From positions 1 to 59,637 of IMG/VR virus record IMGVR_UViG_3300037851_000119: a stretch of DNA of 59,637 bases. One strand, written 5' to 3'. The DNA comes from a virus. A program made the translations under genes and the position numbers. Shown here one piece after another: positions 2,575-27,525 of the stretch. Position 1 is the stretch's first letter. Every line of letters begins with the position of its first letter. The notes under the pieces are model-generated. The model saw nothing but the letters and a program-made list of their open reading frames with translations. It searched no databases and was not told the DNA's origin.

Positions 2575-2586
2575 TAGAGGCCGCCC

Positions 2587-3177: not shown

Positions 3178-3180
3178 GCC

Positions 3181-5751: not shown

Positions 5752-5760
5752 GAGTCTAAG

Positions 5761-6405
5761 ATGCTTGTATTCCAAACCGATGCAGACGGATTCTTTGCGG
5801 GGGCAGTTCAGGCGAACGAATCCCCGCTGGAGCCCGGGGTTTTCCTTATCCCTGGCGGATGCGTGTCTGAGGCGCCCCCGGCTTGTGGTGAGTACGAAGC
5901 AGCCAGACTCGTCAATGGCGCGTGGGCCGTAGTCCCTGATTACGCCGGCGTTAGTTACTGGATGCCGGATCGAACCAAAGGAATAGTGCGCGACCGCGGC
6001 GTGCCGCTTCCTGTCGGCGCGGCATTGACTGAGCCGCCACTCACTATCGGTGAGTTGAAGGACATAAAACGGGCGGAGATCAATCTTGCCCGTGATTCAG
6101 AAGAAGCAGCCGGCTTCGACTACCTTGGCAAGCGGCTTGACTCAGACGCCCAGGCCATTAAGCGCCTGTACGGCGCCGCGATGGCGGCGCAGGCTGCCAT
6201 TGCTGGCGGTATGCCGGCCGGAAACTTCATGGTGACTTGGACGTGCGCGGACGGTACGACTGTCGATATGACCTACGCCGAGGCCGCTGCCGTGCCCGTC
6301 ACGATGGCGCAGGTATCTGGCGCCCTGCATGTCAAGGCCAGGACGCTCAAGCAGCAGATCGACGCCGCGACAACCGAAGCGCAAGTCGAGGCTATCACTT
6401 GGTAA
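5761..6405 (+). CDS. Fibre-associated protein, DUF4376-like C-terminus
   Basis: TAGGAG lies upstream of the ATG. The C-terminal half resembles DUF4376 as I remember it from fibre-accessory proteins. Confidence 0.5.
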   Translation: MLVFQTDADGFFAGAVQANESPLEPGVFLIPGGCVSEAPPACGEYEAARLVNGAWAVVPDYAGVSYWMPDRTKGIVRDRGVPLPVGAALTEPPLTIGELKDIKRAEINLARDSEEAAGFDYLGKRLDSDAQAIKRLYGAAMAAQAAIAGGMPAGNFMVTWTCADGTTVDMTYAEAAAVPVTMAQVSGALHVKARTLKQQIDAATTEAQVEAITW

Positions 6406-6653
6406 AGAAGTACATCCTCAACGTCCTAGTCGCCATCGACCAGTTGGCGTCTGCCATTGTTGGCGGCGACCCGGACGAGACAATCTCATCTCGCCTCGGC
6501 AAGGCGTCGCGGGGTGACTACGGGCGGTTCCAGGCGTACTTCTGGCTTCCGCTCATGTGGCTAGTCGATCTTGTCTTCTTGCCTTTCGACGGGCCAAACC
6601 ATTGTGTGCGCCGCATCGAAGAGGATGAGGGCCGGAACGCTATAGAGGTGTAG
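6399..6653 (+). CDS. Small hypothetical membrane-like protein (possible TTG start)
   Basis: The frame reads KKYILNVLVAIDQLASAIVGGDPDETISSR. The upstream part of track ORF 6237-6653 overlaps the previous gene out of frame. Start is uncertain. Confidence 0.4.
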   Translation: MVKKYILNVLVAIDQLASAIVGGDPDETISSRLGKASRGDYGRFQAYFWLPLMWLVDLVFLPFDGPNHCVRRIEEDEGRNAIEV

Positions 6654-6655
6654 GC

Positions 6656-8686
6656 ATGGTCGCTTTCAGGATCACCGGGTTTGCTGGCATCGTTCCGAGG
6701 ACGGCGGATCGGCTGCTTCCTGACGCTGCCGCGCAGTTGGCCAACAACTGCGTCCTGACAAGCGGGGAACTCCAGCCGGCGTTCCAGAAGGAACTTGAGA
6801 CAGACCCGATCAAGCAGGGGCCGTACTTGACCATATTCAAGTCTGATGTCGGCTGGTTCACTTGGCCCTATGACGTAGATGTAGCCCGCTCCCCGTTGCA
6901 GGGTGAGCAGAAGTACGCCTTCACCGGAGACGGTGAGCCGCGCATGACAACTGACACCCTGGCTCCGAACGGCGGCAACAACGACTACCCGAAGTTGTGG
7001 CGTGTGCTGGGAATCCCGGCGCCGCAGACGGCTCCGACCGTCACGCCTTCTGGTGGGACTGGCGCAACGGTGAGCCGCTTCTATGCCTACACCTTCTATG
7101 ACGACTGGAATCAGGAGAGCGCACCGAGCCCGCTCACGGCTCTTCTGACAGGCAAGGTAGATGATACCTGGGCGGTGACGGGCATGGACGCTACGCCGCC
7201 GAACTCGGGCGACATCACGGCCTTGACCTACGCCAGCCAGACCGTGACGATCACCACCACCAACAAGCACTTCAACAGGGTTGGGGAGCAGATCACGATC
7301 GCCGGGGTGACGACCGTTACCAACGTGAACGGCACTTGGACGCTGACGGCCGTGAACTACACGACCAAGCAGATGTCGTTCGTCGTCACCGGGACGCCTA
7401 CTGGAACCTACAACAACACCACGGACGCCTCAGACACTTGGACGCGGAAAGCGCCGCACGGAACCAGCACGAAGCGACTGTACCGCACAGAAGGGACTTA
7501 TGGCCAGTTCCAGCTTGTTGCCGAAAACATCAGCGCGACAACCTTCAACGACAACATCGCGACCGCCAGCATCCCCGGCGATGAGTTGATCAGCGCGACC
7601 TGGGCGATGCCACCGGCGACCATGGGTGGAATAATCACCCTGCCTAACGGCTCGATGTGTGGATTCGACGGTAACGCTGTTTGCTTCTCTGAGCCCTACC
7701 AGCCTCACGCATGGCCGCCCGAGTACCAGATGCGGGTGGACTACCCGATTGTCGGGATCATGGCCTACGGCATGAACGTAGTTGCAGCGACAACCGGCAA
7801 CCCGTACATGATCACCGGCTACGACCCTGGCCAGATGTCCAGCCAGAAGATTGGCGTACCGTACCCATGCCTGTCGAAACGATCGCTAGTCGATCTTGGC
7901 AACGCAGTCGGGTACGCATCAAAGGACGGGTTCGTGACGATCGGTGAACCAGGGGCCGATATTGTCACGAAGAGTTGGTACACAGCGAACGAGTGGGGCG
8001 ACCTGAACCCTGACACGATGGTTTGCGCGGCGGCCAACGGCGGCCTGTATATCCTACATACCTACCGAGATGTGACGCGCATCCTGTTCTTCGACTTCTT
8101 GCACAACACGGGCCTGACGGTTCTAAACCACAGGGCTACCGACATCGTTGCAGACGCGACGACCGGGGATCTGTACTTATCCGCTACGAGTGACACAGGA
8201 AACGACGAGATCCACAGACTGCCGACGTATGGCGGCTACTACGACACAATGGAGTGGCACAGCAAGAATATTGTCCTGCCGGAGCCAATCAACCTTGGCG
8301 CCGCAAAGGTTGTGTTCTCGTCCAGATACACACAGGAACAGTACGATGCCATGCTTGCTGAGTACCAAGTGAAGCAGGCAGCGAACGTGGCCATCGTCGC
8401 TACAGGGAAAGTCTATGGCGCTCTGAACGCGAAACAGGTACACGGCATGATGGTCAACGGCTCGATTATTCAGAACATCCTGGCGCCGTCCACTGAGGCC
8501 CCCGGTGTCGAGTTCTCGTTGTTCGCAGACGGAGAACTGGTCGTCTCGAAGACCATGCTGACGCCGACCGCCTTCCGCCTGCCGTCCGGATACAAGAGCG
8601 ACCAGATCTCTGTCAAGGTATCCGGCCAGTCGGTTGTGCGGTCGATTGAGGTTGCCGAGACGATGATCGGCCTGAAAGGCGCGTGA
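6656..8686 (+). CDS. Large virion/tail structural protein (676 aa), possibly tail-tube or nozzle type
   Basis: GAGGTG lies upstream of the ATG. The ORF is long and sits in the tail block. Function is inferred from size and position. Confidence 0.5.
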   Translation: MVAFRITGFAGIVPRTADRLLPDAAAQLANNCVLTSGELQPAFQKELETDPIKQGPYLTIFKSDVGWFTWPYDVDVARSPLQGEQKYAFTGDGEPRMTTDTLAPNGGNNDYPKLWRVLGIPAPQTAPTVTPSGGTGATVSRFYAYTFYDDWNQESAPSPLTALLTGKVDDTWAVTGMDATPPNSGDITALTYASQTVTITTTNKHFNRVGEQITIAGVTTVTNVNGTWTLTAVNYTTKQMSFVVTGTPTGTYNNTTDASDTWTRKAPHGTSTKRLYRTEGTYGQFQLVAENISATTFNDNIATASIPGDELISATWAMPPATMGGIITLPNGSMCGFDGNAVCFSEPYQPHAWPPEYQMRVDYPIVGIMAYGMNVVAATTGNPYMITGYDPGQMSSQKIGVPYPCLSKRSLVDLGNAVGYASKDGFVTIGEPGADIVTKSWYTANEWGDLNPDTMVCAAANGGLYILHTYRDVTRILFFDFLHNTGLTVLNHRATDIVADATTGDLYLSATSDTGNDEIHRLPTYGGYYDTMEWHSKNIVLPEPINLGAAKVVFSSRYTQEQYDAMLAEYQVKQAANVAIVATGKVYGALNAKQVHGMMVNGSIIQNILAPSTEAPGVEFSLFADGELVVSKTMLTPTAFRLPSGYKSDQISVKVSGQSVVRSIEVAETMIGLKGA

Positions 8687-12716: not shown

Positions 12717-12729
12717 CTTGCGAGTTGCC

Positions 12730-15700
12730 ATGCCTAAGAAATGGGAAGAAGTACGCCGCTCTGATGCCTTCAAGCGCCTCTCCTCAGAAGAACAAGAAGA
12801 AGCCCGCAACCAATATTTCCGTGATGTCGTTGCCCCGCAGGTAGCGACAGAAGACCTCGAAGCAGTACGCAACAAGTTTGACGAGGACACGGCCCCCAGC
12901 CTGTCCCGCGCCGTCAAGGACTATGCCGGCGATGCCTGGGACGCCATCAACAAGCGCATCCGCCAGGAGCAACCGGAGCGCGATCGTGCCCGCCTGGGCA
13001 TCCTCGAAGACGAGGCCAGGGCCCCTGACAACTCTATTTCTGACCTGACCAACCTCCGCACGGACATCAACAACGTGCGGGCCCGTCTCGGCATGAAACC
13101 CGCGGAGCAGGAGCAGCGTGGCGCCAGCGGATCCTGGGGTGATCCGGTTCCTTCCGCGCCCGCCCCTCTTGCCGGCGTGACGAAGGCCCCAAGCGTGGCA
13201 ATGAACGACCCGCTCAAGACCGAGGGCCTGGAGGTGCTTGGCTCTATCGTTGGCCAGGGCGTCACCCGCCCGCCCGTCCCGACCAATACGCTCGATCGCC
13301 TGAACAACACCACGGAGCAGCAGAAGCGGATCAAGGCTGCCGGCGATGCTGCGGCCCGCAAGATGGTTCCTGGCATGGTTTCGCCCGGAAAGGAGCGTGA
13401 CTACCTCAAGCTGAACAAGGACTCGAAGGGCCTTTCCGCGATCAAGCAGGCGGAGGATGCGGAGCGCAAGCGCATCGCCAAGGAGATCGAGTCCTACGGC
13501 CAGAACTTCGATGAGAACGTGGCCAAGGGACAGTACAAGCCCATGGACGACCGGACTACCGGCGAGACGACCATGGACATGATGAAGGCTACCGCCGAGG
13601 GATTTGCCGCCACCGGCAAGATGATCGGCGATGTCTATGGCCTATCGACCGGCGACATGGACAACTGGCTTTCCAAGGCCGGGGATGAGGCCGTCGATTA
13701 CTGGCGCAAGTCCATGTCTGACTACCAGCAGGCCATGGACGCCTCGAATCAGGCCCAGCTTGCCCAGGTCGAGAAGGATCAAGGCATGTGGGCCGGGTTC
13801 AAGCAGGGCGTCCAGCAGGCCATTGATGACCCGTTGATCGCGGTCGCCCGCCAACTGCCGAACTTCATTGTTGGCGGCGTTGCCGGTGGCGCGGTAAAGG
13901 CAGCGGCGGCGAAGGCATTGCAGACGGCCACCGCGGCCACCCTTGCTGAGATCGGCGCAGGCGGTAACGTCCTGGCCATGGCGGCCATGCAGGGCGCGGA
14001 TGTCGGATCTGACGCCTACCAGAAGATCATTGGCCAGCCACAAGACCAATGGGACATGAATTGGGACTATCAGGAACTCGTCCAAAGTGGCGAGAAGCCG
14101 GAGGTTGCAAAGCAGATCGTTGCCCTGGCGCATGCCCGGGTGGCCGCTGCAAAGGCCGGAGCGGTATCAGTGGCCTCGAACTACATGATCCCTGGCGGCA
14201 TGACGATCGAGAAGATCCTGGCCGGGGCCATGGGCAAGGGAGGGTTCACGGGCGTTATCGGCGGGCTCGTCAAGGGCTATGTCGGCGAGGCTGGACAGGA
14301 GGCGGTAGAGGAAGGTGCTGGCCGCAAGTTAGTCAACGAGGCAGTCCAGAATATTGACGAGAACCAGGGCGCCTATGAGGGTGTCGGTGGCGCGGCCGGC
14401 GTTGGCGCTGGCACGGCCGGCATCATTGGTGGCGCAGCCGGAACCGCTGGCGGAGTCCGTGACTGGATCGCAAAGCGTGGCGTCACCGTGGAGGAACAGG
14501 GCCAGCCTGTACCACCACAGGATACAGCCTTCGATGCCGGCGCCCTGTTTGGCGCGGATCCTGCCGAGGCCGCGGACAAGGCGGATCAGGCCGCCCAGGC
14601 GATCGCTGCCGCTGCACAGGCTGGAGAGGTGGCCCCTGATGCCGACGCACAGGCGATCCAGGCAATCGAGGCGGCAAAGGCCGACCCGAAGCCGGACAAG
14701 ATCGAGGTCGCCGCCCAGGCTATCGCCGCTGCCTCAGAGCAGCAGCCCGCCCCTGCCGGCCCGGAGGTTTCTCTGCCTCCTGCCGCGCAAGGGATCACCA
14801 CCCAGCAACCCGCCGCCGCGCCCCAGGTTCAGGCCCCGCCTCCTCCTCCTGCCGGCCCGATGGTTCGCGCCGCAGAGATCGCCGCGCAACAGGGCGTTAC
14901 CGGGGCCGCCCCGGGCATTGATCAGGCCGTCGATGGCAGCCTGCTACTCGGAGAGGAGGAACAAGAAGATGTCGGCACAGACAATACGCCTGCCGGAGTG
15001 GTTGAGCCTGCCGTACCGGGCGGGACTGATAACGTCCCAGGAGGCGCTGGGCCTGCTGATGTGGGAGCAGGAGGCGTACTTCTCGGAGGCGGAGATACTG
15101 GAGCCGCCGCCGCACCTGTCGCAGGCGATGGACAAGTGCTGCCTGTTCCGGATGCCGGTCAGCCCGACGAGGCACTAGACCAGAAATCTCCTGTCGCCAC
15201 AGAGCAGGACGAGGAGAACATCAAAGAGGCAATCGACCTGCTTCTAAGCGTAGATCTGCCGATCATGAAAGATCGCGCCGCAGAACTCAAAAAGAACCTC
15301 GACCAATGGAAAGCTGGGAAGCGTTCCAAGTGGGCCAGCGAGTTCGATACGGCCGGGGTTCTCGCTGACATCAAGGAATACGTTTCCACATTCAAGAAAG
15401 CGCCGCCAGGGCCGGCATGGGATCCGCAGGCACAGGAGCATGAGGTTCAGCCGCCCATGCCCGGCCAAGTCGTCACCTGGGACACCGAGGACGGCCCGGC
15501 CAGGGGCCGCGTCTCCGACGACCAGAAGCAGGCCCTTGGTTCCGGCACGGTTGTCGAGATCATCGACCACCCCGACAAGGAGGGAAACCCGAAGCACAAG
15601 CGCGTCATCGTCCCGACCGAGAGCCTGACGCCTGACGAAGAGGCCGCCAAGGCCAGGGATGATCTTGATGCCGCGCTTGGGGAACTAGGCGGCATCCTTG

Positions 15701-18700
15701 GCACGGAGGCGGATCGAGTCGAGACGCCGAAGGCTGAGACGGAAGCGCCGAAGGCAGAGACGGAGGCCCCGAAGGAGGAGATGCCGCGCATCGCCACCGA
15801 CGACCGCGCCCCTGACTACACCCCTGAGACGCATGCACAGGTCATCGAGAAGCACCCGGAGAGTGGCGCGATCGGCCCGCAGGAAGGGTTCGAGCCCGAC
15901 AATGCCGACCGCATGGAAGGCGCCAGCGTTGACGAGATCAACGACCGCATCCAAGAGGTCGAGCAGGAACTTGAGGAGGACGCCCGCGCCTACGACGAGA
16001 TCAGGGAACAGGGCACGAAGGCCCTGACTGAGTATGAGCTAGGCATGCGCGAACCCGATGAGGCCGTCGATTTTGCCCTGACGCACCGCGAGAACTACAT
16101 CACCCAGGCCAAGTCGATGCTCGACTACCTGCGCGGCCTCAAGGCCCAGATGGAGGGCAACGACACCCCGGCCACCCGCATGGACTCATGGCAGTACGTT
16201 CCTGCCGATCCGGCCGTCATCGAGAAGGTGGCCGAGAAGCTGGATCTGGAGATTCCGAAGGCCGAGCAGGCCGGCCGCCCGGTCACGATCACGCACGGCA
16301 ATACCTCGATCATCTTCGAGAACAATGGCAAGGGATACGAGCCGACCAGGGCGGTGCTGTTCGACGGCACTCCGCTGATCCGCGGCGAAATGGCGACCCG
16401 CTCCCATGTGATCGACGCGATCAAGGCCTATGCCGACATCAACGTGGCGATCGCCGACGACTGGCTCAAGCATCTACAGCGATACGAGGGATATGCCAAG
16501 AAGGCAGGGGCACTCAAGAAGTTCAACGAAGGCGTTGCCTACCTGACTGACATCAGCAAGGGCAAGGAAATCCCGAATCTGAATCGCATCAACCAGATTG
16601 CGAACTCCATGCGCGGCCTGCCCGGCATGTCCGATGCCGTGGATGCCATGAAGGCGGCGGCCGGCGTATTCGGCAACGCAAAGGCGAAGGCCAAGGCAGA
16701 GCCGCAGCCTACCGCACAGATTTACGAGGACGCCTCGCGGAACCGCGTGATCCGACTGATAAAGGAATCTGGCGGCATCACCATGGACGAGGCCAGCGAC
16801 ATCATTGGCGAAACCGGCCGCCGTGCCGCCCAGCGCATGCCGGGCCTGTTCCGCAACAACGGCAACGGGATCGACCGCATTGCCGAGATGTTCCATGAGT
16901 ACGGCTACCTGACCGATGCCGAGTTCAACGATGTGGACGGCGGTGTGCAGCGGGTACGCGAGATCCTGCGCTCCGCCCTGGACAAGACCGGCTTCGTCGG
17001 CACGATGGCGGAGCAGGAGCGCCATGCTCAACTGCAAGCCATGGAGCAGGAGATCGGCGACAAGCACGGCGAGGCGATCGCTGACGAGGCGATGGTTCTT
17101 ACTGACGCCATCGAGGAAGAGTACGACAATATCCCCTTCACGCCAGCCGAGATCGAGGCGGCCGGGGGCAACGCCAACCCGTTCGGAGACGACAATGGAC
17201 AAACAGGAAATCGCCCAGCGGTTCAAGAAGCTGCCCAAGGACGTGCAAACCAAGGTGTTGCAAATGGCACGGATCAAGCGCAGCCTCAAGAAGGGTTCGG
17301 GCTCGAAGGCTACGACAAGCAAGACATAGCCGAGAAGGACGCCCGCGCCAACGATCAGGCCGCCGCCGACCGGGCGATGGCCGACCGTGAGCGTGACGCC
17401 TTCAACCTGACCGGCCAGACGGCCCAGCGCGAGACGCCGCCAACCGCCGAGATGTTCACCCCTGACGGCAGGGCTACCGATGCCGCCGCCAAGGCAAGGG
17501 CTCTCGAAGACCTGAACGATGCCCTGGCTGACCTGGGCGACATCTTCGGCAAGAACACCCGCCTGTACATGATCACCCCGGAGCAGGAGCAGAAACTTCT
17601 GCCGGTGCTTACTCGCGTCATGGATGCCGCCTTCCGGGCCGGTTACTACACCTTCAAGGAGGCGGCCAAGTTCGTCCTCGACCAGATCCGCGCCAAGCTG
17701 GGAAACAATGTTGCCGACATGATCAGCCTGGATCACCTCCAGGGCGCCTATATCGGTATGGCCGGCAAGTACGGCGACAAAGCCTCGAGCAAGAAAGATG
17801 TCGTTTCCGTCGAGAACATTGCCGATCTAGACAAGGCCGACCAGCCAGCCGCCGTCCCGTCCAAGGCTACGGAGACTGTCCCGCCCCAGGTTACGGAGAT
17901 CCCAGCCCGCGTGAAGGGCGCACCTTTATATATGGAGCCACTTGGGGAGAAGGCCGTCTTGATCCTGGGCGACACCATGGCCAACAAGGATCGCATCAAG
18001 GCAGCCGGCGCGATCTGGAACCGGGCTCACAAGGGCTGGATGTTCCCGAAGGCAAACCTCGCCAAGATGCTCGACAAGCTGGGCGACCTGTTCAAGCCAG
18101 ACGAGAAGACCCTGGCCGTCGAGAAGGCCATGGAGGTCATGCGCCATTTCATGCCCAACAGCCAATACCGCACGATCGAGTGGGGCATGAAGGGCGAGGA
18201 GGGAGAGTTCTTCAAGGACAAGATGATCGAGATGGCCAAGGTCATCGAGGACATGCCGAAGACCTACCAGCAGGACGGCAAGGGCGAAGGCGCCGTGGCC
18301 CATCTGCATTACTTCCGTGGTAGCACAGACTTCTGGATCACCGAGAAGGACAAGGACGGCCCTGGCACGGAGCAAGCCTATGGCCTCGCCTCGCTCTACA
18401 ACGACCCGAACGATGGCGACATGGGCTACATCTCGATTGACGAGATCACGGCCTCCAACGTCGAACTCGACCTGTACTGGACGCCGAAGACCATTGCCGA
18501 GATCAAGGGCAAGGCCGCGCCGGCCAAGACTGAGACGAAACCGGAGCCGACTCCCGCTCCAGCGCAGGAAGACACCGACACCGTGAAGGTGGCCAAGGAG
18601 TTCGCAAAGCGGTTCCAGGCTGGCGAACGCTTCGACTCCATCGTGGACGCCCGCAAGGTGGCCGGCGAGATCCTGGGCAAGGCCGTAACCCCAGGCACGG

Positions 18701-21700
18701 CGATCGCCAAGCAGGTTGACGAGGCGATCGAGTTGGGCGTGGTCATGGAGGCCCGCCGCATCGCCCAGGCCGGCAATGATGCCAAGGCGACCTATGACGC
18801 CCTGGTAGATCTGTACGACCGGCAGCCGAACCTGTCGATGAAGTCCTCGACCTCTGTTGCCAATCAGGCCTACTCGACCCCGGCGCCCCTGGCCTATCTG
18901 GCCTCCAGGCTGGCCGGCATCGACAAGGGCACGACCGTACTCGAACCAACGGCCGGCAACGGCATGCTGCTGATCGAGGCGGCTCCAGCCAAGACCGTAG
19001 CGAACGAGTTGAACGACGACAGAGCCGAGAACCTGCGGGCCATTGGTTTCAACCCGACCACCAAGAACGCTGCGACAGAGAAAATGGCGGCGGAGGTTCC
19101 GGTGCAGGCCGTGATTATGAACCCGCCTTTTGGCACGACCAAGGACGCGGCCGGCACGACGATCGAGTACACGGTTCCACACATCAAGAGCGCGGATGGA
19201 ACCTACAAGACAAACGAGGTTGATCATGCCATCGCCATGAAGAACCTCAAGCACATGAGGGAAAACGGCCGCGCAGTCCTGATCCTTGGCGGAGTAAAGG
19301 CCGAGAACGAGGCGGCCAGGAGTGATGCCTACAACAGCGGGGCAAAGCGCAAGTTCTATTGGGGCCTCTACGGCGAGTACAACGTGGTCGATCACTTCAC
19401 CGTGAACGGCGATCTATACTCGAAGCAGGGCGCCGCTTGGCCGGTCGATGTCGTTGTCATCGAGGGCAGAGGCAAGTCGGCCAGGGCCCTGCCAGCGGTT
19501 GACGTTCCTCGCATCTATAATTCGTGGGAAGACCTGAAAGGGGTACTGGATGAGCAAACTAGCAGACGAGATCGGAATCAAGCTGGAGCGACTCCTGCTC
19601 AAGGAGAAAAACCCGCATCCGACAATGGAGTATCTGGAAAGCCTGCTGGAGGAATCGGGGATCGACCCGTATCTGGAAATCAGGACGGAGAGCCCGGCCA
19701 AGTTCGCGTCGGATCTGAGCAGCATCCTGTCGGAAAACCGGGGGGCGTGGGTCAATCCGGGCAATCTGGACGAGTTCGAGACGGCGGAGGATCTGCTGGC
19801 GGCAATCCTGCCGTAGAGGCGTTCGAGGATAGCGGCCGGGATAGCGTAGTCCTAAACGAAGGAACCCAATTCGCAAAGACCGTACAGGTCGGCGAGGCGT
19901 GGTGGGTGCGCTTCCACACAACCGGAACCAAGGGCAAGCGCATCAACAAGGACGGGAAATACGTCTATACGACCGTACCTGACAACGGAGAATACCAAGA
20001 ACCGGGCATCAAGGTTCTGGCGATCGGCAAGGGCAATAACCCCAACTTCCTTGTAAGCGAGGGCGGTGTTGGCAAGGAAAATGTGCCGACAGTCGTACCT
20101 GCGTCTGACATGATGAAGATGTCCTCCACAAAAGAGGAGCAGGCCGAACACGAAAAGATCGTGGCAGAAAATGCTGCGGCAAGGGCGGCAGAAGAAGATG
20201 CCAATAGAAAGCCCGCCGAGCGCAAGACAGAGAAGGCCTCAGAGGGTCAGGTCAACTACGACCCGGTATCGAAGCAGGGCAATATTGGTACGCTTGTACC
20301 TGCAAACATGCGCGAGGCGGTCAAGTCCGCCCTGGAGAACCTGCAAGATCGCGTAGGCGACCTCGATGCCTTCGTTGCAGAACACCTCGACTACAAGAAG
20401 GAAGACCTGGGCAGCTACTTCTCTGCCGAGCAGGTTGACGCCCTGGCCCTGGCCCTGGACAACCTCGACAACGGCAAGGGCTTCATCATTGGCGACCAGA
20501 CCGGCGTTGGCAAGGGCCGGGTGAACGCTGCCATCATGAAGTGGGCGATCAAGAACGGCAAGACGCCGATCTTCGTCACAGAGAAGCCGAACCTCTACCG
20601 CGACATGCTGCGCGACATGGCCGACATCGGCATGGCCGGCAAGAGCCTTGAGCAGGCAGAAGACGGCGAGAAGATGCGCGGCGTATCAAAACTCGTCCTG
20701 ATGACGAACGCGGATCAGGACATCCCAATCGACGCCGAGGCCATGGAGTGGTTCGAGGAGATGGAGCAGGCCAAGGAGGAGGGGCTGCCTCCGCCGCCGA
20801 AGCCGAAGGAAGGCTTCATGCAAAAGGTATCCGGCCCGAAGCAGAAGGAGCGCCTGGATCGCATGGCGCAGAACGGCCGCCTGGAGGATGGCGCCAAGGT
20901 GGTATTCACGACCTACTCCCAGATCCAGACCGTCAAGGGCAACACCACCGTTCGCAACAAGTTCCTCGACACCTTCGCCAAGGGCGGCATCCTGATTCTT
21001 GACGAGTCCCACAACGCGGGCGGCAGCAGCAACGACAGAGGTGCAAAGAACGATCTCAACCGGGCCGTGCTGGTGCGTCAACTTGCAGGCGCCGCCGATG
21101 GTGTCTTCTATTCGTCGGCCACCTACGCCAAGAACCCTGCCGTGATGGATCTTTACTTCCGCACGGACATGAGCATGGCCGTCAGCAACATGAGCGAGTT
21201 GAAGGGCATCATCGAGAACGGCGGCGTCCCGATGCAGCAGATCCTCGCCAACATGCTCACCGAGGCCGGCCAGTACATGCGCCGGGAGCGTTCCTTCGAG
21301 GGCGTCGAGTACAACACCCCAACGGTCGAGGTGGCCAAGGAAATCGCCAACCAAGTATCGGACGGCATGCGGCAGATCATGGAGTTCTCTGATCTTGTAA
21401 AGGCCGTCACCAATGACATCGACGACGACATCAAGGGCGATGCAGGCAGCGCGTCAGAGGACGGGTCAACTGGCGGCGCCGGGGCGGAGTCCACTAGCTT
21501 CGCCTCCGTGATGCACAACCTGATCGGCCAATACCTGCTGGCGCTAAAGGTCGAGCCAACTATCAAGATGGCCATAGAGTCCCTGAAAGCCGGCGAGAAG
21601 CCTGTTATCACCGTGGCGAACACCATGGAGTCCCTGATCAACGAACTGGCAAAAGACCGCGGCGTTGGCATAGGCGACCCGGTGGATCTTGGCTTTGGCG

Positions 21701-24700
21701 ACCTGTTCGTGCGCTACCTTGAGAAGACCCGCGCCATCACGATCAAGGACGGATTCGGCAACAAGCAGAAGCACTACCTGACCGACGAGGAACTTGGCCC
21801 CGGTGGCGTTGCAATGTACGAGGCGATCAAGCAGTTCTCACTTGGGTCTGATTGGGGTAATACGCCGATCTCACCGATCGACAGGATCAAGGCGGAACTG
21901 GAGAGGGCTGGCTACAAGACCGGCGAGATCACGGGCCGCCAGGGTACGCTGGACTATGCCGGCAAAGACCCGATTTACCGCATGCGCGGCAACAAGGAGC
22001 GTTCCGTTGCCGGCAGAATCAAGACCATCGAGGCCTTCAACAACGGTGACATCGACGTTGTGATCCTGAACCGCGCCGGATCCACGGGCCTGTCCTTGCA
22101 TGCCAGCCCGAAGACCGGCAAGGATCTCCGGCGCCGGCACATGATCATCGCCCAGGCCGAGGCGAACATCGACACCCACATGCAGATGTTGGGCCGCGTC
22201 CACCGTACCGGGCAGGTTATTGCGCCGCGCTACTCGCAACTGGTGGCCAACGTGCCTGCCGAGAACCGCCCTGCCGCCGTCCTGGCGAAGAAGATGGCCA
22301 GCCTGAACGCCAACACCTCCGCCGCCCGGTCGTCTGTCGTGACGGCAAAGGACACCCTGGACTACATGAACGAGTATGGCGACGAGGTGATCGCCAACCT
22401 CATGTATGCCGATCAGGAACTCCACTTCAAGCTGGGCGCCCCGCTCAAGTATGACGACAGCGGCAACGGATTCGAGCCGAAGGACGCCGCCAGAAAGGTG
22501 ACTGGCCGCATCCCGCTCTTGCCACTATCTGATCAGGAGGCACTGTACGAGCAGATCGGCATCGACTACAAGGACTTCCTGGCCATGAAGGAGGCCATGG
22601 GCGAGAACAAGCTGGAGGCCAAGGTCTTCGAGTTGGAGGCGATCCCAACAGACGAGATCGAACTGACCGCCAGAGTCGGCGACAGCACATCTCCGTTCGC
22701 CGCCCCGTCAAAGGCGATCATCTACGACATCAAGCGGATCGGAAAGCCGATGACGGAGGAGGAGCGCACGAACGCGATCCTCAAGTCTCTCGGCAACAAG
22801 GACTCCTGGGGCTGGGCAGCAGACAACCTCAAGGCGATCAAGAGCGAGTACGAGGCCTTCGAGGCCGATGAACTGGCGACCATCGAGGGTCAGCGCACAA
22901 TGGAGGCTACCAAGATGCGCCTGCGCTACCAGTACAACAAGGTGGTGAACGCGATCGAGGAATTCGGCCCAAGCGCCCCGTTTGAACTGATCGATGCGAA
23001 GGGTATGGTCTTCTACGGCGAGGTGCTTGGTCTTGAGCGCAAGGGCAAGGCAAAGAACCCGGCAGCGACCGGGACTTGGAAGATAAGGTTGGCCCTGGCT
23101 GATTCCGCCCGCTCGATCACCATCCCCCTGTCCAAGATCACCTTCGAGGACAAGAAGGAGGCCGGCAAGAGCAGGCTCAAGCTATCTGACAAGCGCACCG
23201 TCGATGACGCTTTCGCTCGCATGCAGGGCGTCTCCCGCGAGAACAGGGTGATCCTTGAGGGCAACCTTGTTGCCGCGTTCAGCACCTTCCCTGGCGGCCA
23301 GATCATCTACTTCAACGGGAACGATGGCCATCTGCGCCAGGGCATCCTGATGCCGCGCAACTTCAACCTCAAGAAGGCCGTGGCCAAGAAGGCCGAGGTG
23401 CTGCGTACACCGGATGAGGCTGTCTCCTTCCTCAAGAAGGATCAGATGAAGCACATGCTGATTGATGACGCCGCCAGCGGCCAGATCGGCTATGTCCGTG
23501 ATCCTCGCTACCGCACCTGGGGCTGGCAGATCTCCGTGCCGTCGAGCAAGAAGTCTGGCGCCAAGTGGTTCCTGAATCAGGACATCCTCACCGCGCTGGG
23601 CGTTGACTTCTTCAAGAGTGGTAGCCGGATGGTTGCCTCTTTCGATGAGTCGCAACTGCCCGCCGTGGTGGCCGCTGTCTATAAGCAGGAGCGCCTGAAA
23701 GGGGTCAACCGCTCCGCCCAGGAGAGTTCCCGCCCGAACGCCGTCAGCGCAGACATGACGGCCAAGGACGTTCGCCGGGCCCTGGATGATCACTTCGGCC
23801 GCGGCATAATCCAATCCATGATCAACGGCGGCATCCTCCAGATCGTTGATCGGATCGACCAACTACCCGAGCATCTTGCCAAGATGTACAAGGGTCGCAC
23901 CGATGTCGATGGCCTCTATGACCCGTATGCCGAGCGCGGCTGGATCATCGCCGAGAACAGCACTCCTGACACCGTTGCCAAGACCCTGATCCATGAGATC
24001 GGCGAACACTACGGCCTGGAGCGCATGCTTGGGCCGGATGAGTACACGCGCATCCTGAACACGGTTCGCTCGATGCACGTTGCCGGGAACCCCGTGGTCA
24101 AAGCCGCCTGGAAGGAGGTCAAGGACTACTATACCCGCGAGGAGGGTAGCCGAGAGTTCCTGCGCGAGGTGCTGGCCAAGGTGGCAGAGCGGGCCGCAGA
24201 CAAGCCGATCGGCGTCCTTGAGCGGATCTACCGGGCCGTGAAGAAGTGGCTGGCCGACAATGGCTGGACGCAACTGAACGACCGCGATCTGCAAGCCCTG
24301 GTGATGGCCTCTCTCCGCAAGTCAACATCTGACGTTCGCACCCTTGTAATCCGCGGCGGCGAGGTCGTGGCTTCGAGCCGAAGCATCCGCGATCGCCTCG
24401 CCTGGGATCAGCAGAACGAAGACAAGAATGGCCCCGTGTTCGAGGCCCCTGACTTCAAGATTATCTCGACCCGTGAACTGTCCACGACCGACGACTTCCA
24501 GCGTGATGGGCTGGCCTTCGGCCATGCGGCCCATGTCCGTGCCGGCAACAAGGCCTACCGCATGGAGATCCTGACGAATGACGGGCGCCGGATCGGCGGC
24601 ATGGACGCGGAGGTGAACGCATTTGGCGAGATCTCGGCCATCCATGACATCGAGTTCAACCGCTACGAGCGCGGCAAAGGGTGGGGTAAAAAGGTGGTGT

Positions 24701-27525
24701 CGTACATCGTAGCCAACAACTATGATGAAGATGCCGTTCGCATCGTGCAGATTGTTGAAGACGCAAAAGCCTTCTGGCGTAAAATGGGGGCACTCGAAGG
24801 AGATCCGTATGGAAACAGTCAAATCGCCTGGGCAGACCATGAGAAATCCGCTCACCGTGGCAAGGGAGGAACGCTGGGCTCAGATGGAGGCGGAAGGCCG
24901 GGAGTTCGAGGCCCAAGTGAAAGCATCCGGGGGGGTCGAGGCGTATCTCAACAAGCGGTTCCCGCAACGCGCCAAGGCGGCCCGTCAGACAAATTCCTAC
25001 AAGCCGTAGGCGGGCGGGCCCTCGCCAAGAGGATTACCTTACCGACCTACAACTACGCGGCTGCCGTACTCGACAGGTTCACCCCTGAGACGGTAAAGGC
25101 CGGGGTAGTTTCAGACTATGGCCTCGATGAGGCCTACACCGACCGGCGAGATGATGTAGAGATCGCCGTCACCAAGCACCTCCGCAGCGCCAAGACCATG
25201 ATCGAGCGGCTGGCCGGCCTGACCAGGGCCGAAAGCCGGGTGGCCTATCAATGGCTGAACGAGAAGCCTGACACGGAACTTGAGCGCCAGCTTTACGCAG
25301 AACTGCCGGAGGCCTCCCGCCGCGTCCTCGATGAGGTCAAGGAGTTTATCGACACCCTCTCCCAGGAGGCGATCGAACTAGGCCAGTTGACCACGGAGGC
25401 CTACGAGCGGAACAAGTACGCCTACCTGCACCGCTCCTATGCCAAGTACACCCTGGACAATGGGAAGACGATGCGGGCCCTCCATGCCCTGCGCCGCCGC
25501 ATCATTGGCGACCAGTACAAGGGACGCGGCCTCAAGTTCTTGGTAGGCATGGACAAGTTGATGGCGGCCGGCAAGCGGGTCAAGCAGGGCGACAAGTTCA
25601 TCCGCCTGGAGAAGAAGGCATCGACCGGCAAGATCACAAAGCGCATCTGGTGGAAGGAGGGCGTCCCGATCCCCGAGGCCTATGCCGCCTTCGAGGTCGA
25701 TCCGAATCCGTGGGAATGGCGATGGACTGACAAGAAGGGCCCTGTCCTATGGCGCGACTTCTCCAAGGAAGAGCGGGAGCAGATGGGGGAACTGGACGAG
25801 GCCCGCTTCGCCATCGTGACGACGATCTCGAAGATGGCCCACGACATCGAGATTGGCAAGTTCTTCGCCTTCGTTGACGAGAACTACGCCGAGGAAAACC
25901 CGCCCCCGGGCGCAGAGGTGATGAAGGCCGTGGACATCGAGCGCGGCAAGATCAACTGGATCGACGCCCTCAAGAAGGGGACATGGGTTCAGGTTCCCGA
26001 CACCAAGATCCAGGGCACAAGCGTCCACAAGTACGGCGCGATCGCCGGCAAGTACGTCCCTGGCCCGATATGGAATGACATTCGCCAGATCGCCAACAAG
26101 CCCGGCGTCTGGGCGTGGTACGACAAGATGATGAAGTATTGGAAGATCTCCAAGACTGCGCTCTCCCCGGCCGTCCACCTCAACAACGTCATGGCCAACT
26201 TCGTCATGGCCGACATGCATGATGTCGGTGTGCGCGAGATCTACGAGGCCGTCACCATCATGGTGAAGGCCAAGAAGGGCAACGCCGATGCCAAGGCTAT
26301 GATCGAGCGGTTCGAGGACTCCGGCGCAATCGCCGGCAGCTTCATCCATGCCGACCTAAAAGACGACCTGATCAATCCGCTCTTGGAGGAACTGCGTGAG
26401 CAGATGAATGGCGACGACGAGATGGCAGGCATGGCCAGTATCGGGACGGTCTTCTCCCTGCTGCATGAGAAGCAATGGAAGCAGGCCACCAATGCCCTGC
26501 TATCCACCAAGGGGGCGGCCCGCGGCAAGAAGGTGGTCGATCTGATGATGAAGGCCTACTCAGGCGAGGATGAGATCTTCCGTCTGGCCGCCTTCCTCAA
26601 GGGAACCAAGGACGGGATGACAGACCGCGAGGCCGGCAAGATGGCCCGCAAGTCGTTCCTAGACTACCGGATCAATGCGCCCTGGATCCAGAACCTACGG
26701 CACACCGTCCTGCCGTTCGTGGCCTTCTCCTACCGGATGCTGCCGATGTATCTCGAGATGTTCGCCAAGAAGCCTTGGAAGCTGGCTAAGTACGCGATCT
26801 TCTCGAACGCCATGGTGGCGATCGGCATGTCCCTGGCCGGCGTTGACGAAGACGACATGGACGAGATCGAGAAGTTGCTGCCGGAAGACAAGCAGGGCAT
26901 CACCCCGTTCCTGACGAATCGCCTTATCCCGCTCGGAAGGGGTGAGGATGATCGGATGATCATGCTCGACATCACCCGCTGGATTCCTCTTGGCGACATC
27001 TTCGAGATGCGCGGCGACACCAGCAACACCATGCCGTTCCTGGCCCCGGCCTATCCGTCCGGCCCGATGATGACGTTGCTCGAGGTGTTCGCCAACAAGA
27101 GCCTGTTCAGCGGCCGGGACATCTGGATGGAAACTGACGCCACGGCAGAGGCCGCCTCCAAGTCGTTCGCGCACATCTGGAAGGGCTGGATGCCTAACTT
27201 CCCGATGCTGCCCGGCACATACTCCACCGACAAGATCATGGCCGCCTACACCGGGGCCACCGATACCTTCGGCCGCGAATACGATCTGGGTCAGGCCTTG
27301 CTGTCGTCTGTCGGCGTGAAGGCCGGGTACTACTCGACAGACACCCTGCGGATGAACGCCTACTACGACTACGACTCCTCGATGGATGAACTGGTGTCCA
27401 GCTACTACTCGCTGGCCCGCCAGTACAACCAGAACAAGATCACCGAGGCCGAGTACGACGAGAGGGCTGCCAAGATCCAGGCGAAGATCGAGGAACTGAC
27501 GCGGAAGTACGAGGAGAAGAACTAG
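12730..27525 (+). CDS. Giant multidomain (polyvalent-type) virion protein of about 4930 aa, with methyltransferase and SNF2/strawberry-notch-like helicase segments
   Basis: Uninterrupted ORF; the track start at 12718 is TTG and the first ATG is 12730. Motifs: VLEPTAGNG and NPPF (19120-19131); GDQTGVGKGR (20491-20520); DESH (21001-21012); QMLGRVHRTGQ (22183-22215). Confidence 0.85.
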   Translation: MPKKWEEVRRSDAFKRLSSEEQEEARNQYFRDVVAPQVATEDLEAVRNKFDEDTAPSLSRAVKDYAGDAWDAINKRIRQEQPERDRARLGILEDEARAPDNSISDLTNLRTDINNVRARLGMKPAEQEQRGASGSWGDPVPSAPAPLAGVTKAPSVAMNDPLKTEGLEVLGSIVGQGVTRPPVPTNTLDRLNNTTEQQKRIKAAGDAAARKMVPGMVSPGKERDYLKLNKDSKGLSAIKQAEDAERKRIAKEIESYGQNFDENVAKGQYKPMDDRTTGETTMDMMKATAEGFAATGKMIGDVYGLSTGDMDNWLSKAGDEAVDYWRKSMSDYQQAMDASNQAQLAQVEKDQGMWAGFKQGVQQAIDDPLIAVARQLPNFIVGGVAGGAVKAAAAKALQTATAATLAEIGAGGNVLAMAAMQGADVGSDAYQKIIGQPQDQWDMNWDYQELVQSGEKPEVAKQIVALAHARVAAAKAGAVSVASNYMIPGGMTIEKILAGAMGKGGFTGVIGGLVKGYVGEAGQEAVEEGAGRKLVNEAVQNIDENQGAYEGVGGAAGVGAGTAGIIGGAAGTAGGVRDWIAKRGVTVEEQGQPVPPQDTAFDAGALFGADPAEAADKADQAAQAIAAAAQAGEVAPDADAQAIQAIEAAKADPKPDKIEVAAQAIAAASEQQPAPAGPEVSLPPAAQGITTQQPAAAPQVQAPPPPPAGPMVRAAEIAAQQGVTGAAPGIDQAVDGSLLLGEEEQEDVGTDNTPAGVVEPAVPGGTDNVPGGAGPADVGAGGVLLGGGDTGAAAAPVAGDGQVLPVPDAGQPDEALDQKSPVATEQDEENIKEAIDLLLSVDLPIMKDRAAELKKNLDQWKAGKRSKWASEFDTAGVLADIKEYVSTFKKAPPGPAWDPQAQEHEVQPPMPGQVVTWDTEDGPARGRVSDDQKQALGSGTVVEIIDHPDKEGNPKHKRVIVPTESLTPDEEAAKARDDLDAALGELGGILGTEADRVETPKAETEAPKAETEAPKEEMPRIATDDRAPDYTPETHAQVIEKHPESGAIGPQEGFEPDNADRMEGASVDEINDRIQEVEQELEEDARAYDEIREQGTKALTEYELGMREPDEAVDFALTHRENYITQAKSMLDYLRGLKAQMEGNDTPATRMDSWQYVPADPAVIEKVAEKLDLEIPKAEQAGRPVTITHGNTSIIFENNGKGYEPTRAVLFDGTPLIRGEMATRSHVIDAIKAYADINVAIADDWLKHLQRYEGYAKKAGALKKFNEGVAYLTDISKGKEIPNLNRINQIANSMRGLPGMSDAVDAMKAAAGVFGNAKAKAKAEPQPTAQIYEDASRNRVIRLIKESGGITMDEASDIIGETGRRAAQRMPGLFRNNGNGIDRIAEMFHEYGYLTDAEFNDVDGGVQRVREILRSALDKTGFVGTMAEQERHAQLQAMEQEIGDKHGEAIADEAMVLTDAIEEEYDNIPFTPAEIEAAGGNANPFGDDNGQTGNRPAVQEAAQGRANQGVANGTDQAQPQEGFGLEGYDKQDIAEKDARANDQAAADRAMADRERDAFNLTGQTAQRETPPTAEMFTPDGRATDAAAKARALEDLNDALADLGDIFGKNTRLYMITPEQEQKLLPVLTRVMDAAFRAGYYTFKEAAKFVLDQIRAKLGNNVADMISLDHLQGAYIGMAGKYGDKASSKKDVVSVENIADLDKADQPAAVPSKATETVPPQVTEIPARVKGAPLYMEPLGEKAVLILGDTMANKDRIKAAGAIWNRAHKGWMFPKANLAKMLDKLGDLFKPDEKTLAVEKAMEVMRHFMPNSQYRTIEWGMKGEEGEFFKDKMIEMAKVIEDMPKTYQQDGKGEGAVAHLHYFRGSTDFWITEKDKDGPGTEQAYGLASLYNDPNDGDMGYISIDEITASNVELDLYWTPKTIAEIKGKAAPAKTETKPEPTPAPAQEDTDTVKVAKEFAKRFQAGERFDSIVDARKVAGEILGKAVTPGTAIAKQVDEAIELGVVMEARRIAQAGNDAKATYDALVDLYDRQPNLSMKSSTSVANQAYSTPAPLAYLASRLAGIDKGTTVLEPTAGNGMLLIEAAPAKTVANELNDDRAENLRAIGFNPTTKNAATEKMAAEVPVQAVIMNPPFGTTKDAAGTTIEYTVPHIKSADGTYKTNEVDHAIAMKNLKHMRENGRAVLILGGVKAENEAARSDAYNSGAKRKFYWGLYGEYNVVDHFTVNGDLYSKQGAAWPVDVVVIEGRGKSARALPAVDVPRIYNSWEDLKGVLDEQTSRRDRNQAGATPAQGEKPASDNGVSGKPAGGIGDRPVSGNQDGEPGQVRVGSEQHPVGKPGGVGQSGQSGRVRDGGGSAGGNPAVEAFEDSGRDSVVLNEGTQFAKTVQVGEAWWVRFHTTGTKGKRINKDGKYVYTTVPDNGEYQEPGIKVLAIGKGNNPNFLVSEGGVGKENVPTVVPASDMMKMSSTKEEQAEHEKIVAENAAARAAEEDANRKPAERKTEKASEGQVNYDPVSKQGNIGTLVPANMREAVKSALENLQDRVGDLDAFVAEHLDYKKEDLGSYFSAEQVDALALALDNLDNGKGFIIGDQTGVGKGRVNAAIMKWAIKNGKTPIFVTEKPNLYRDMLRDMADIGMAGKSLEQAEDGEKMRGVSKLVLMTNADQDIPIDAEAMEWFEEMEQAKEEGLPPPPKPKEGFMQKVSGPKQKERLDRMAQNGRLEDGAKVVFTTYSQIQTVKGNTTVRNKFLDTFAKGGILILDESHNAGGSSNDRGAKNDLNRAVLVRQLAGAADGVFYSSATYAKNPAVMDLYFRTDMSMAVSNMSELKGIIENGGVPMQQILANMLTEAGQYMRRERSFEGVEYNTPTVEVAKEIANQVSDGMRQIMEFSDLVKAVTNDIDDDIKGDAGSASEDGSTGGAGAESTSFASVMHNLIGQYLLALKVEPTIKMAIESLKAGEKPVITVANTMESLINELAKDRGVGIGDPVDLGFGDLFVRYLEKTRAITIKDGFGNKQKHYLTDEELGPGGVAMYEAIKQFSLGSDWGNTPISPIDRIKAELERAGYKTGEITGRQGTLDYAGKDPIYRMRGNKERSVAGRIKTIEAFNNGDIDVVILNRAGSTGLSLHASPKTGKDLRRRHMIIAQAEANIDTHMQMLGRVHRTGQVIAPRYSQLVANVPAENRPAAVLAKKMASLNANTSAARSSVVTAKDTLDYMNEYGDEVIANLMYADQELHFKLGAPLKYDDSGNGFEPKDAARKVTGRIPLLPLSDQEALYEQIGIDYKDFLAMKEAMGENKLEAKVFELEAIPTDEIELTARVGDSTSPFAAPSKAIIYDIKRIGKPMTEEERTNAILKSLGNKDSWGWAADNLKAIKSEYEAFEADELATIEGQRTMEATKMRLRYQYNKVVNAIEEFGPSAPFELIDAKGMVFYGEVLGLERKGKAKNPAATGTWKIRLALADSARSITIPLSKITFEDKKEAGKSRLKLSDKRTVDDAFARMQGVSRENRVILEGNLVAAFSTFPGGQIIYFNGNDGHLRQGILMPRNFNLKKAVAKKAEVLRTPDEAVSFLKKDQMKHMLIDDAASGQIGYVRDPRYRTWGWQISVPSSKKSGAKWFLNQDILTALGVDFFKSGSRMVASFDESQLPAVVAAVYKQERLKGVNRSAQESSRPNAVSADMTAKDVRRALDDHFGRGIIQSMINGGILQIVDRIDQLPEHLAKMYKGRTDVDGLYDPYAERGWIIAENSTPDTVAKTLIHEIGEHYGLERMLGPDEYTRILNTVRSMHVAGNPVVKAAWKEVKDYYTREEGSREFLREVLAKVAERAADKPIGVLERIYRAVKKWLADNGWTQLNDRDLQALVMASLRKSTSDVRTLVIRGGEVVASSRSIRDRLAWDQQNEDKNGPVFEAPDFKIISTRELSTTDDFQRDGLAFGHAAHVRAGNKAYRMEILTNDGRRIGGMDAEVNAFGEISAIHDIEFNRYERGKGWGKKVVSYIVANNYDEDAVRIVQIVEDAKAFWRKMGALEGDPYGNSQIAWADHEKSAHRGKGGTLGSDGGGRPGVRGPSESIRGGRGVSQQAVPATRQGGPSDKFLQAVGGRALAKRITLPTYNYAAAVLDRFTPETVKAGVVSDYGLDEAYTDRRDDVEIAVTKHLRSAKTMIERLAGLTRAESRVAYQWLNEKPDTELERQLYAELPEASRRVLDEVKEFIDTLSQEAIELGQLTTEAYERNKYAYLHRSYAKYTLDNGKTMRALHALRRRIIGDQYKGRGLKFLVGMDKLMAAGKRVKQGDKFIRLEKKASTGKITKRIWWKEGVPIPEAYAAFEVDPNPWEWRWTDKKGPVLWRDFSKEEREQMGELDEARFAIVTTISKMAHDIEIGKFFAFVDENYAEENPPPGAEVMKAVDIERGKINWIDALKKGTWVQVPDTKIQGTSVHKYGAIAGKYVPGPIWNDIRQIANKPGVWAWYDKMMKYWKISKTALSPAVHLNNVMANFVMADMHDVGVREIYEAVTIMVKAKKGNADAKAMIERFEDSGAIAGSFIHADLKDDLINPLLEELREQMNGDDEMAGMASIGTVFSLLHEKQWKQATNALLSTKGAARGKKVVDLMMKAYSGEDEIFRLAAFLKGTKDGMTDREAGKMARKSFLDYRINAPWIQNLRHTVLPFVAFSYRMLPMYLEMFAKKPWKLAKYAIFSNAMVAIGMSLAGVDEDDMDEIEKLLPEDKQGITPFLTNRLIPLGRGEDDRMIMLDITRWIPLGDIFEMRGDTSNTMPFLAPAYPSGPMMTLLEVFANKSLFSGRDIWMETDATAEAASKSFAHIWKGWMPNFPMLPGTYSTDKIMAAYTGATDTFGREYDLGQALLSSVGVKAGYYSTDTLRMNAYYDYDSSMDELVSSYYSLARQYNQNKITEAEYDERAAKIQAKIEELTRKYEEKN
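14969..15178 (+). CDS. Nested +1-frame ORF A (69 aa) inside the giant gene
   Basis: AGGAGG (14954-14959) lies 9 nt before the ATG. By hand count, GC3 is 63/69 here versus 32/70 for the giant frame over the same bases. Peptide: MSAQTIRLPEWLSLPYRAGLITSQEALGLLMWEQEAYF... Confidence 0.5.
   Translation: MSAQTIRLPEWLSLPYRAGLITSQEALGLLMWEQEAYFSEAEILEPPPHLSQAMDKCCLFRMPVSPTRH
17195..17329 (+). CDS. Nested +1-frame ORF B (44 aa) inside the giant gene
   Basis: GGAG (17185-17188) lies 6 nt before the ATG. GC3 is 35/44 versus 17/45 for the giant frame. Peptide: MDKQEIAQRFKKLPKDVQTKVLQMARIKRSLKK... Confidence 0.4.
   Translation: MDKQEIAQRFKKLPKDVQTKVLQMARIKRSLKKGSGSKATTSKT
18280..18470 (+). other. DUF2958-like segment of the giant protein
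   Basis: HLHYFRGSTDFWITEKD...YGLASL...GYISIDEI matches the DUF2958 pattern as I remember it. Confidence 0.45.
18790..19540 (+). other. N6-adenine DNA methyltransferase segment of the giant protein
   Basis: SAM-binding motif VLEPTAGNGML (18937-18969) and catalytic NPPF (19120-19131). Confidence 0.75.
19550..19816 (+). CDS. Nested +1-frame ORF C (88 aa) inside the giant gene
   Basis: AAGGGGT (19538-19544) lies 5 nt before the ATG. An in-frame TGA sits 4 codons upstream. GC3 is 69/88 versus about 33/89 for the giant frame. The peptide looks helical and acidic. Confidence 0.5.
   Translation: MSKLADEIGIKLERLLLKEKNPHPTMEYLESLLEESGIDPYLEIRTESPAKFASDLSSILSENRGAWVNPGNLDEFETAEDLLAAILP
20260..22420 (+). 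other. Strawberry-notch / SNF2-type helicase segment of the giant protein
   Basis: GDQTGVGKGR P-loop, DESH box, and motif VI QMLGRVHRTGQ. Confidence 0.7.
24553..24792 (+). other. GNAT-like segment of the giant protein
   Basis: EISAIHDIEFNRYERGKGWGKKVVSYIV...AKAFWRKMGA resembles the acetyl-CoA-binding core of GNATs. DNA here is locally AT-richer. Confidence 0.4.
24809..25009 (+). CDS. Nested +1-frame ORF D (66 aa) inside the giant gene
   Basis: AAGGAG (24797-24802) lies 6 nt before the ATG. GC3 is 48/66 versus 32/67 for the giant frame. Peptide: METVKSPGQTMRNPLTVAREERWAQMEAEGREFEAQVK... Confidence 0.45.
   Translation: METVKSPGQTMRNPLTVAREERWAQMEAEGREFEAQVKASGGVEAYLNKRFPQRAKAARQTNSYKP

Follow-up and report, generated by a model that had tools for sequence, protein, structure and literature searches.

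The 59,637-bp viral DNA analyzed here (record IMGVR_UViG_3300037851_000119; 'the window' refers to this whole stretch) is a complete viral genome with direct terminal repeats, and a giant gene within it, predicted to encode a DarB-like protein, encloses a small open reading frame (ORF) that we refer to as ORF A (coordinates in Table 1). ORF A lies on the same strand as the giant gene, in its +1 frame, and very probably functions as a gene in its own right, translated independently of the giant gene with which it overlaps. A preliminary description of this DNA had put ORF A forward as a nested gene, to be abandoned if its peptide were found not to be conserved while the Gly-rich linker encoded by the giant frame was. 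Homology searches and comparison of the giant genes gave the opposite outcome, with the peptide conserved and the linker not, and ORF A stands as a genuine nested gene.

The first homologues were found by tblastn of the 69-residue peptide against 50,697 phage records, which matched Vibrio phage vB_ValP_FGH (FGH) and Thalassomonas phage BA3, at 34–36% identity over 90% of the ORF A peptide and an expectation value (E) of about 0.01. In both phages the matching copy is in the +1 frame inside a gene of about 2,630 codons, opens with ATG behind a Shine-Dalgarno (SD)-like site, and reaches its stop codon within two residues of the end of the match; close relatives of these copies are present on two metagenomic viral contigs. 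Two further tblastn searches revealed a copy in Vibrio phage VvAW1, located in the +1 frame of a 3,641-codon gene annotated 'DarB-like antirestriction', and this copy matches a profile built without VvAW1 at E 5.5e-18. A profile search of 1.84 billion representative proteins yielded 32 matches at E ≤ 0.001, about 29 of them 59–79 residues long and aligned end to end. The long matches P0012 and P0013 were rejected as false positives, being translations of tandem repeats, and repeats are probably also behind the match of P0006 (2,537 residues), five stretches of which align with profile positions 16–49 (E 5.5e-10). The family has no name; its consensus is LPxW[LM]..A....V[IL]S..EA....[LM]P..L..A..RL.LWE, and the C-terminal residue is usually His or Gln.

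The genomic context was checked on all retrievable contigs that carry family members, and two arrangements are apparent. The first is nested. Besides the copies in the cultured phages VvAW1, FGH and BA3, there are copies in two relatives of the window's phage that were found through their internal virion protein (45–48% identity). One of these, the distant relative G001, has a complete nested copy (E 5.8e-14) located downstream of a module that is 35% identical (tblastn, E 5e-20; locus L040) to residues 270–505 of the window's giant protein; in the other (G004) the nested copy is cut off by the end of the contig. In total there are 13 nested lineages, and in every one the small frame lies wholly inside a longer ORF of the same strand, always in its +1 frame, with the longer ORF free of stop codons across the overlap and both frames open in the relatives. 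The second arrangement is free-standing, with three copies on contigs whose other genes are of ordinary bacterial kinds (TRAP/TctC transport, response regulators, GGDEF, HAD hydrolase); in the alignment, these homologues and the nested copies have a common starting point. Two of the free-standing members, at positions 488–718 of L020 and 785–973 of L021, are on bacterial-looking contigs where the neighbors are response-regulator and GGDEF genes or a HAD hydrolase. The bacterial neighborhoods of the free-standing copies vary and point to no particular role for the small protein. Scans of genome contigs for further free-standing copies confirmed none. Alignments of the whole family were too variable for pattern scans. 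A second small coding sequence, BA3_0003 (L003, positions 6953–7297), is annotated within the giant gene of BA3.

It is the nested frame that is conserved. A Smith-Waterman comparison of the ORF A peptide with that of FGH scores 92, against 25 ± 5 in shuffled sequences, and none of 5,000 shuffles reaches 92; translations of the same bases in the giant frame score 34 (27 ± 5 in shuffles), which 439 of 5,000 shuffles reach. The window's giant-frame linker is likewise at chance level when compared with the linkers of FGH and BA3 (scores of 34–35 versus 27 ± 5). When 11 nested copies are compared all against all, the nested frame reaches a median z of 13.6, the giant frame one of 1.0, and the nested value is the higher in all 55 pairs. 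The giant proteins of FGH and BA3 are merely 20–40% identical between residues 406 and 830, and the identity of their giant-frame third positions rises from 0.2–0.4 to 0.68–0.83 exactly over the nested ORF, a jump that we read as the classic mark of a second coding frame.

The substitutions between close relatives have the same character. Three independent close pairs (FGH/L005, BA3/L006 and L019/L022) differ at 29 bases in the overlap, and these fall on nested codon positions 1, 2 and 3 in the numbers 4, 7 and 18, an excess at position 3 with a binomial p of 0.0014; 19 of the 29 are silent in the nested frame and five in the giant frame. The free-standing pair L020/L021 has an ordinary coding pattern, with 11, 6 and 30 differences at the three positions. 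These comparisons indicate that the nested frame is under purifying selection.

The possibility that the GC-rich DNA left ORF A open by accident, with its GC pattern a by-product of a linker rich in Gly, Ala and Pro, was considered against this background. It is true that a genome of 60% GC such as this one has many long alternative-frame ORFs (the giant gene by itself contains 19 of 40 codons or more), and high GC at the first position of the giant frame does follow from the composition of the linker. Moreover, the +1 frame is free of stop codons for 274 codons (14354–15178), and the part upstream of ORF A translates into Arg/Ser/Pro junk, so the length of an ORF by itself carries no meaning here. 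Homology, selection and start signals all stand against an accident, however, as does a nested peptide that is conserved while the giant-frame linker is not; a chance ORF is highly improbable, and as far as sequence comparison can refute this reading it has already done so.

The preliminary description had given the coordinates of ORF A, an AGGAGG located 9 nucleotides (nt) upstream of its ATG, the peptide read by the giant frame across the overlap, and a G or C in 63 of 69 third codon positions, and all of these were confirmed. The nested third-position GC content (GC3) is accordingly 0.91; in the giant frame the same bases give a first-position value (GC1) of 0.915, the 99.6th percentile among the gene's 210-nt windows, and a GC3 of 0.46, at the 1.7th percentile, the mean of the gene being 0.78. 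That description attributed the high GC3 to codon-usage bias, an explanation that does not hold, as the value is 0.79–0.91 in all 11 nested copies whatever the GC content of the genome. In BA3, at 42% GC, the nested wobble GC is 0.79 and the GC3 of the giant gene 0.33; in free-standing copies the wobble GC is 0.71–0.72. The pooled nested wobble bases (n = 725) comprise 423 G, 193 C, 90 A and 19 T, and T accounts for 2.6% of them as opposed to 19% in free-standing copies (Fisher 9e-14).

In the giant frame this wobble base occupies codon position 1. Avoidance of T at that position excludes from the giant frame all stop codons and all codons for Phe, Tyr, Cys, Trp, Leu and Ser that begin with it, and codons that have G or C there specify Ala, Gly, Pro, Val, Glu, Asp, Arg and Gln, in agreement with the linkers as observed: the pooled composition of 11 giant-frame linkers is 19% A, 15% G, 12% P and 10% V. 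The free-standing genes have two to four stop codons in the frame that the phages keep open. Both frames are thus selected, in different ways: the nested frame for its sequence and the giant frame for being open and bland. The GC contrast that drew attention to ORF A is a real signal, a signature of dual coding and not of translational codon bias. Further +1-frame ORFs are present in linkers of the same giant gene (19550–19816, 24722–25009 and also 17195–17329), with the same switch of GC between frames; alternative-frame GC3 is 0.78 versus 0.36 in the giant frame for ORF C, and 0.73 versus 0.47 for the ORF D region. The peptides of these other ORFs are unrelated to ORF A by eye.

The start signals are conserved along with the frame. 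GGAG or GAGG is present 5–13 nt upstream of all eight nested starts tested, whereas for the whole set of ATGs in these giant genes the proportion is 4.7%, and the four nested copies added later also have an SD-like site before the ATG, as judged by eye; each nested copy has a start codon and a predicted ribosome-binding site of its own. A promoter and terminator scan of positions 14500–15500 found no promoter-like site, the + strand being empty.

These signals also bear on a different route to expression, in which ribosomes reading the giant frame undergo a programmed +1 frameshift, and the product is a truncated N-terminal module ending in the three-helix domain predicted for ORF A. Such a product would account for the nested frame being +1 in every lineage and open upstream of its ATG for 10 to 205 codons, and SD-like sequences are known to stimulate frameshifting in prfB and dnaX. 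There are several difficulties with it. First, an ATG stands at the N-terminal boundary of the conserved domain in every copy, and a frameshift needs neither an ATG nor a boundary there. Second, the free-standing homologues begin at the same point. Third, in several lineages the nested frame is closed 10–14 codons upstream of the ATG, and only the SD is conserved in this interval (by eye). Finally, neither a slippery motif nor an in-frame stop is seen at the window's site by eye, no formal scan having been made. We therefore favor independent initiation over frameshifting, which we consider improbable, because the ATG and SD are kept and the free-standing copies begin at the same point.

Does the copy in the window itself behave as a member of the family? 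Its 69 residues fall within the length range of the family, and the alignment spans residue 8 to the last residue; the C-terminal ...SPTRH-stop is common to P0033, and six of the seven invariant or near-invariant residues (P9, E25, A26, P47, L50, R56 and L59 in window numbering) are kept. A profile built without the window sequence scores the ORF A frame (14333–15175) at 45.3 bits (E 4e-13) and matches nothing else among 1,140 six-frame peptides of the window, a score that is not fully independent in that the family had been gathered with a profile containing the window peptide. This is one of several points that weigh against ORF A as a functional gene. ORF A is also among the more divergent copies, with Lys at a near-invariant Arg and 'LFR' in place of 'LWE'. 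Most of the metagenomic examples are on contigs of 0.5–2 kb, where a 'long ORF' signifies a frame that is open from end to end. The small gene appears to be dispensable, because the family was not found in a complete relative of the window's phage (G003), nor in Bcep22, BcepIL02 or Achromobacter phage CF418P1. Lastly, translation of the nested product is inferred from sequence alone.

Some of these points would also fit a scar of gene fusion, that is, a once-independent gene swallowed when its neighbors fused and now present in this phage as unexpressed DNA that codes only for linker. Free-standing homologues exist, some conserved positions of the window copy do not follow the consensus, and some related phages are without the small gene. 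A dead frame, however, would have gained stops and indels, and here the start, the SD, the stop and an unbroken frame are kept in 13 lineages with peptides that are only 25–35% identical. In addition, the substitutions in the three close pairs avoid altering the nested protein, and the window copy still scores 45 bits against the family and has a confident predicted fold. There is thus little likelihood that ORF A is such a relic.

With ORF A as a translated gene, we propose that the late mRNA of the giant gene would be read by two sets of ribosomes. The first set would start at the giant gene's own start and read through, and the second would bind the internal AGGAGG, start at the nested ATG and stop at the nested TAG to give a three-helix protein of 69 residues. 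Of the two frames that share these 210 bases, the nested one would carry sequence-specific information under purifying selection, and the giant one would need only to stay open and to encode a harmless flexible linker – both achieved through the nested wobble base, which is almost never T and mostly G or C.

As to origin, the small gene probably predates the giant-frame reading of these bases, since it has free-standing homologues and that reading yields nothing distinctive. In that case the linker would be a read-through 'overprint' by which an N-terminal module was joined to the enzymatic body while the small gene was kept. A single old event would fit both the +1 relation, which never varies, and the location, which is always after the first module (residues 470–750); several events are also conceivable given that the N-terminal modules are not detectably related across groups. 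The preliminary description had noted that the giant-frame segment just after the nested stop is visibly AT-richer, as if a cassette had been inserted. Positions 15180–15420 are indeed mildly AT-richer, with a GC content of 0.548 where the gene as a whole has 0.613 (the 1.6th percentile for windows of the gene and the 8th for those of the genome), and the codon periodicity there is ordinary in the giant frame (GC at positions 1, 2 and 3 of 0.61, 0.38 and 0.65). The inserted cassette is not supported, as this stretch codes normally and the layout is shared with distantly related phages, from which the nested arrangement appears to be old; nothing speaks for a recent insertion in this phage, repeats or other insertion marks not having been sought beyond this. 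In a complete related phage (L036, IMGVR_UViG_3300027851_000033) with an internal virion protein 45% identical, the giant ORF begins at 16303; its N-terminus is unrelated and the ORF A family is not represented in it, which suggests that the first module and the nested gene may be exchanged as one unit.

A broader proposal, which we regard as possible and rather doubtful, is that the linkers of giant polyvalent phage genes are more than spacers, being read-throughs over small genes that were there before. Giant genes would grow by the fusion of neighbors across a gene that survives between them in the +1 frame, and annotation would miss a whole conserved layer of small proteins. To this layer ORF A would belong as an ancient gene that arose in cells, was taken up by phages and is required along with the injected polyvalent protein.

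The features discussed are listed in Table 1. The structural genes of the genome include those for terminase, portal, major head protein and internal virion protein, and the giant gene lies after the internal-virion-protein genes (the upstream gene at 6656–8686 matches phrog_511, internal virion protein, at 9e-132). The giant frame is open from a TTG at 12718 (ORF 12718–27525), and the gene probably starts at the ATG where the stored product begins. Pfam matches to the giant protein are AAA_34 (2e-24), Helicase_C_4 (8e-24) and ResIII (9e-7), with a weak match to N6_Mtase, and we classify the predicted product as a DarB-like 'polyvalent' protein because it combines a strawberry-notch-type helicase with an N6-methylase-like region. 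Polyvalent proteins carry several conflict-related domains (methylase, helicase, LPD) on one polypeptide of a phage or plasmid (Iyer et al. 2017, PMC5512222), and the helicase and methylase-like region of the window's giant gene conform to this description. The host genes of FGH and VvAW1 encode LPD38, methylase and SNF2/ResIII domains.

Table 1. Positions of ORF A, its putative start signal and the surrounding parts of the giant gene in the window.
Feature	Positions	Strand	Details and basis
Nested gene A (ORF A, putative)	14969..15178	+	ATG 14969–14971, TAG 15176–15178; 69 codons plus TAG; +1 frame of the giant gene
Shine-Dalgarno-like AGGAGG	14954..14959	+	9 nt before the nested ATG, within the giant coding sequence; read from the sequence
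Giant-frame linker, residues about 751–820	14968..15177	+	Gly/Ala/Pro/Val/Asp-rich, low-complexity; translation
Giant host gene	12730..27525	+	4,931 codons from ATG 12730; ORF list, translation, stored 4,931-residue product
Part of N-terminal module, giant protein residues 270–505, ahead of the linker	13537..14244	+	tblastn versus relative G001

At the DNA level the region of the window studied here has no match among the 50,697 phage records, and neither word searches nor pattern scans found close relatives of the first 1,350 residues of the giant protein; within the first 1,300, a relative could be detected only for the module shared with G001. Outside the overlap, a methylase segment (E 8e-5) is all that the window's giant protein has in common with those of FGH and BA3, and hhalign gave no significant match between the N-terminal modules of FGH, BA3 and VvAW1 and that of the window. 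When the FGH giant gene (L009, 21462–29366) is compared with that of BA3 (L010, 1851–9746), blastp aligns only the first 556 residues, stopping where the stop codon of the nested ORF lies, and blastn aligns nt 2538–7905 at 74% identity.

AlphaFold2 predicts a three-helix bundle for the ORF A product, with helices at residues 10–17, 23–38 and 48–56, and a mean predicted local distance difference test (pLDDT) score of 80.6 with four sequences and 85.8 with 31. Comparisons of the family with Pfam, PHROGs, PDB sequences, Foldseek databases (PDB and BFVD), VIA-align wide and the ESM Atlas (features and shape) gave nothing above noise; the best structural matches, at Z 3.1 and a TM value of about 0.5, are to generic helical proteins, and BFVD returned only BA3_0004 itself. 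The peptide starts with MSAQTIRLPEWL and has no hydrophobic signal, its sole Cys are residues 57–58, and reading of the sequence reveals neither a signal peptide nor a lipobox. An o-spanin (Rz1-type lipoprotein) identity was ruled out, there being no lipoprotein signal or lipobox Cys and the predicted fold being a soluble three-helix bundle. Ulx of phage P1 was rejected as a relative, with an hhalign probability of 0.1%. By analogy with the small Dar accessory proteins of P1 we offer the tentative guess, more likely wrong than right, that the small protein is a protein-binding accessory factor co-expressed with a packaged or ejected polyvalent protein.

Gene callers do not allow one gene within another on the same strand, and the family is consequently invisible in phage annotation: the copies in VvAW1 and FGH are unannotated, and that in BA3 is called only as a 110-codon ORF from an upstream ATG. 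ORF A provides a clean example of dual coding, in which one frame is informative and the other is kept open and harmless through the wobble of the first, and it suggests a signature by which more such genes could be sought, namely near-absence of T at one codon position together with GC periodicity that switches frame. It also bears on how giant polyvalent (DarB-like) genes are assembled, and the factors co-expressed with injected anti-defence proteins gain a further small member, which can be tested in three cultured phages. The literature searched, coverage of which was incomplete, contained no account of genes nested in polyvalent or DarB-like genes, and the word 'overlapping' is not in the text of the founding paper on polyvalent proteins (PMC5512222).

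The small Dar proteins Ulx, DdrA and Hdf of phage P1 are needed alongside DarB (PMC9144972) and, like ORF A, they are small proteins encoded beside a DarB-type giant antirestriction protein; that the parallel extends to function is a guess, and the P1 accessory genes are separate and non-overlapping, unlike the nested ORF A. In the P1 record a further large gene of the Dar antirestriction system, ddrB, encloses a small ORF annotated on the opposite strand, iddB (L024, 26577–26975).

Same-strand embedded genes as such are already known, among them Rz1 in Rz and comS in srfAB. The embedded class of Rz/Rz1 spanin genes in lambda-like phages likewise has a small same-strand +1 gene with its own start wholly inside a larger one (PMC5295617, PMC6139136). 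Rz1 is an outer-membrane lipoprotein that binds the product of its host gene, whereas the predicted ORF A product has neither signal peptide nor lipobox. Unlike Rz, the gene that houses ORF A is giant and multidomain, and what it encodes across the overlap is a disordered linker. In Bacillus subtilis, comS encodes a short regulatory protein from an internal start, out of frame within srfAB, a giant multidomain (nonribosomal peptide synthetase) gene. It is a single, narrowly distributed case on a bacterial chromosome, whereas the ORF A family is present in many phages and also as free-standing genes.

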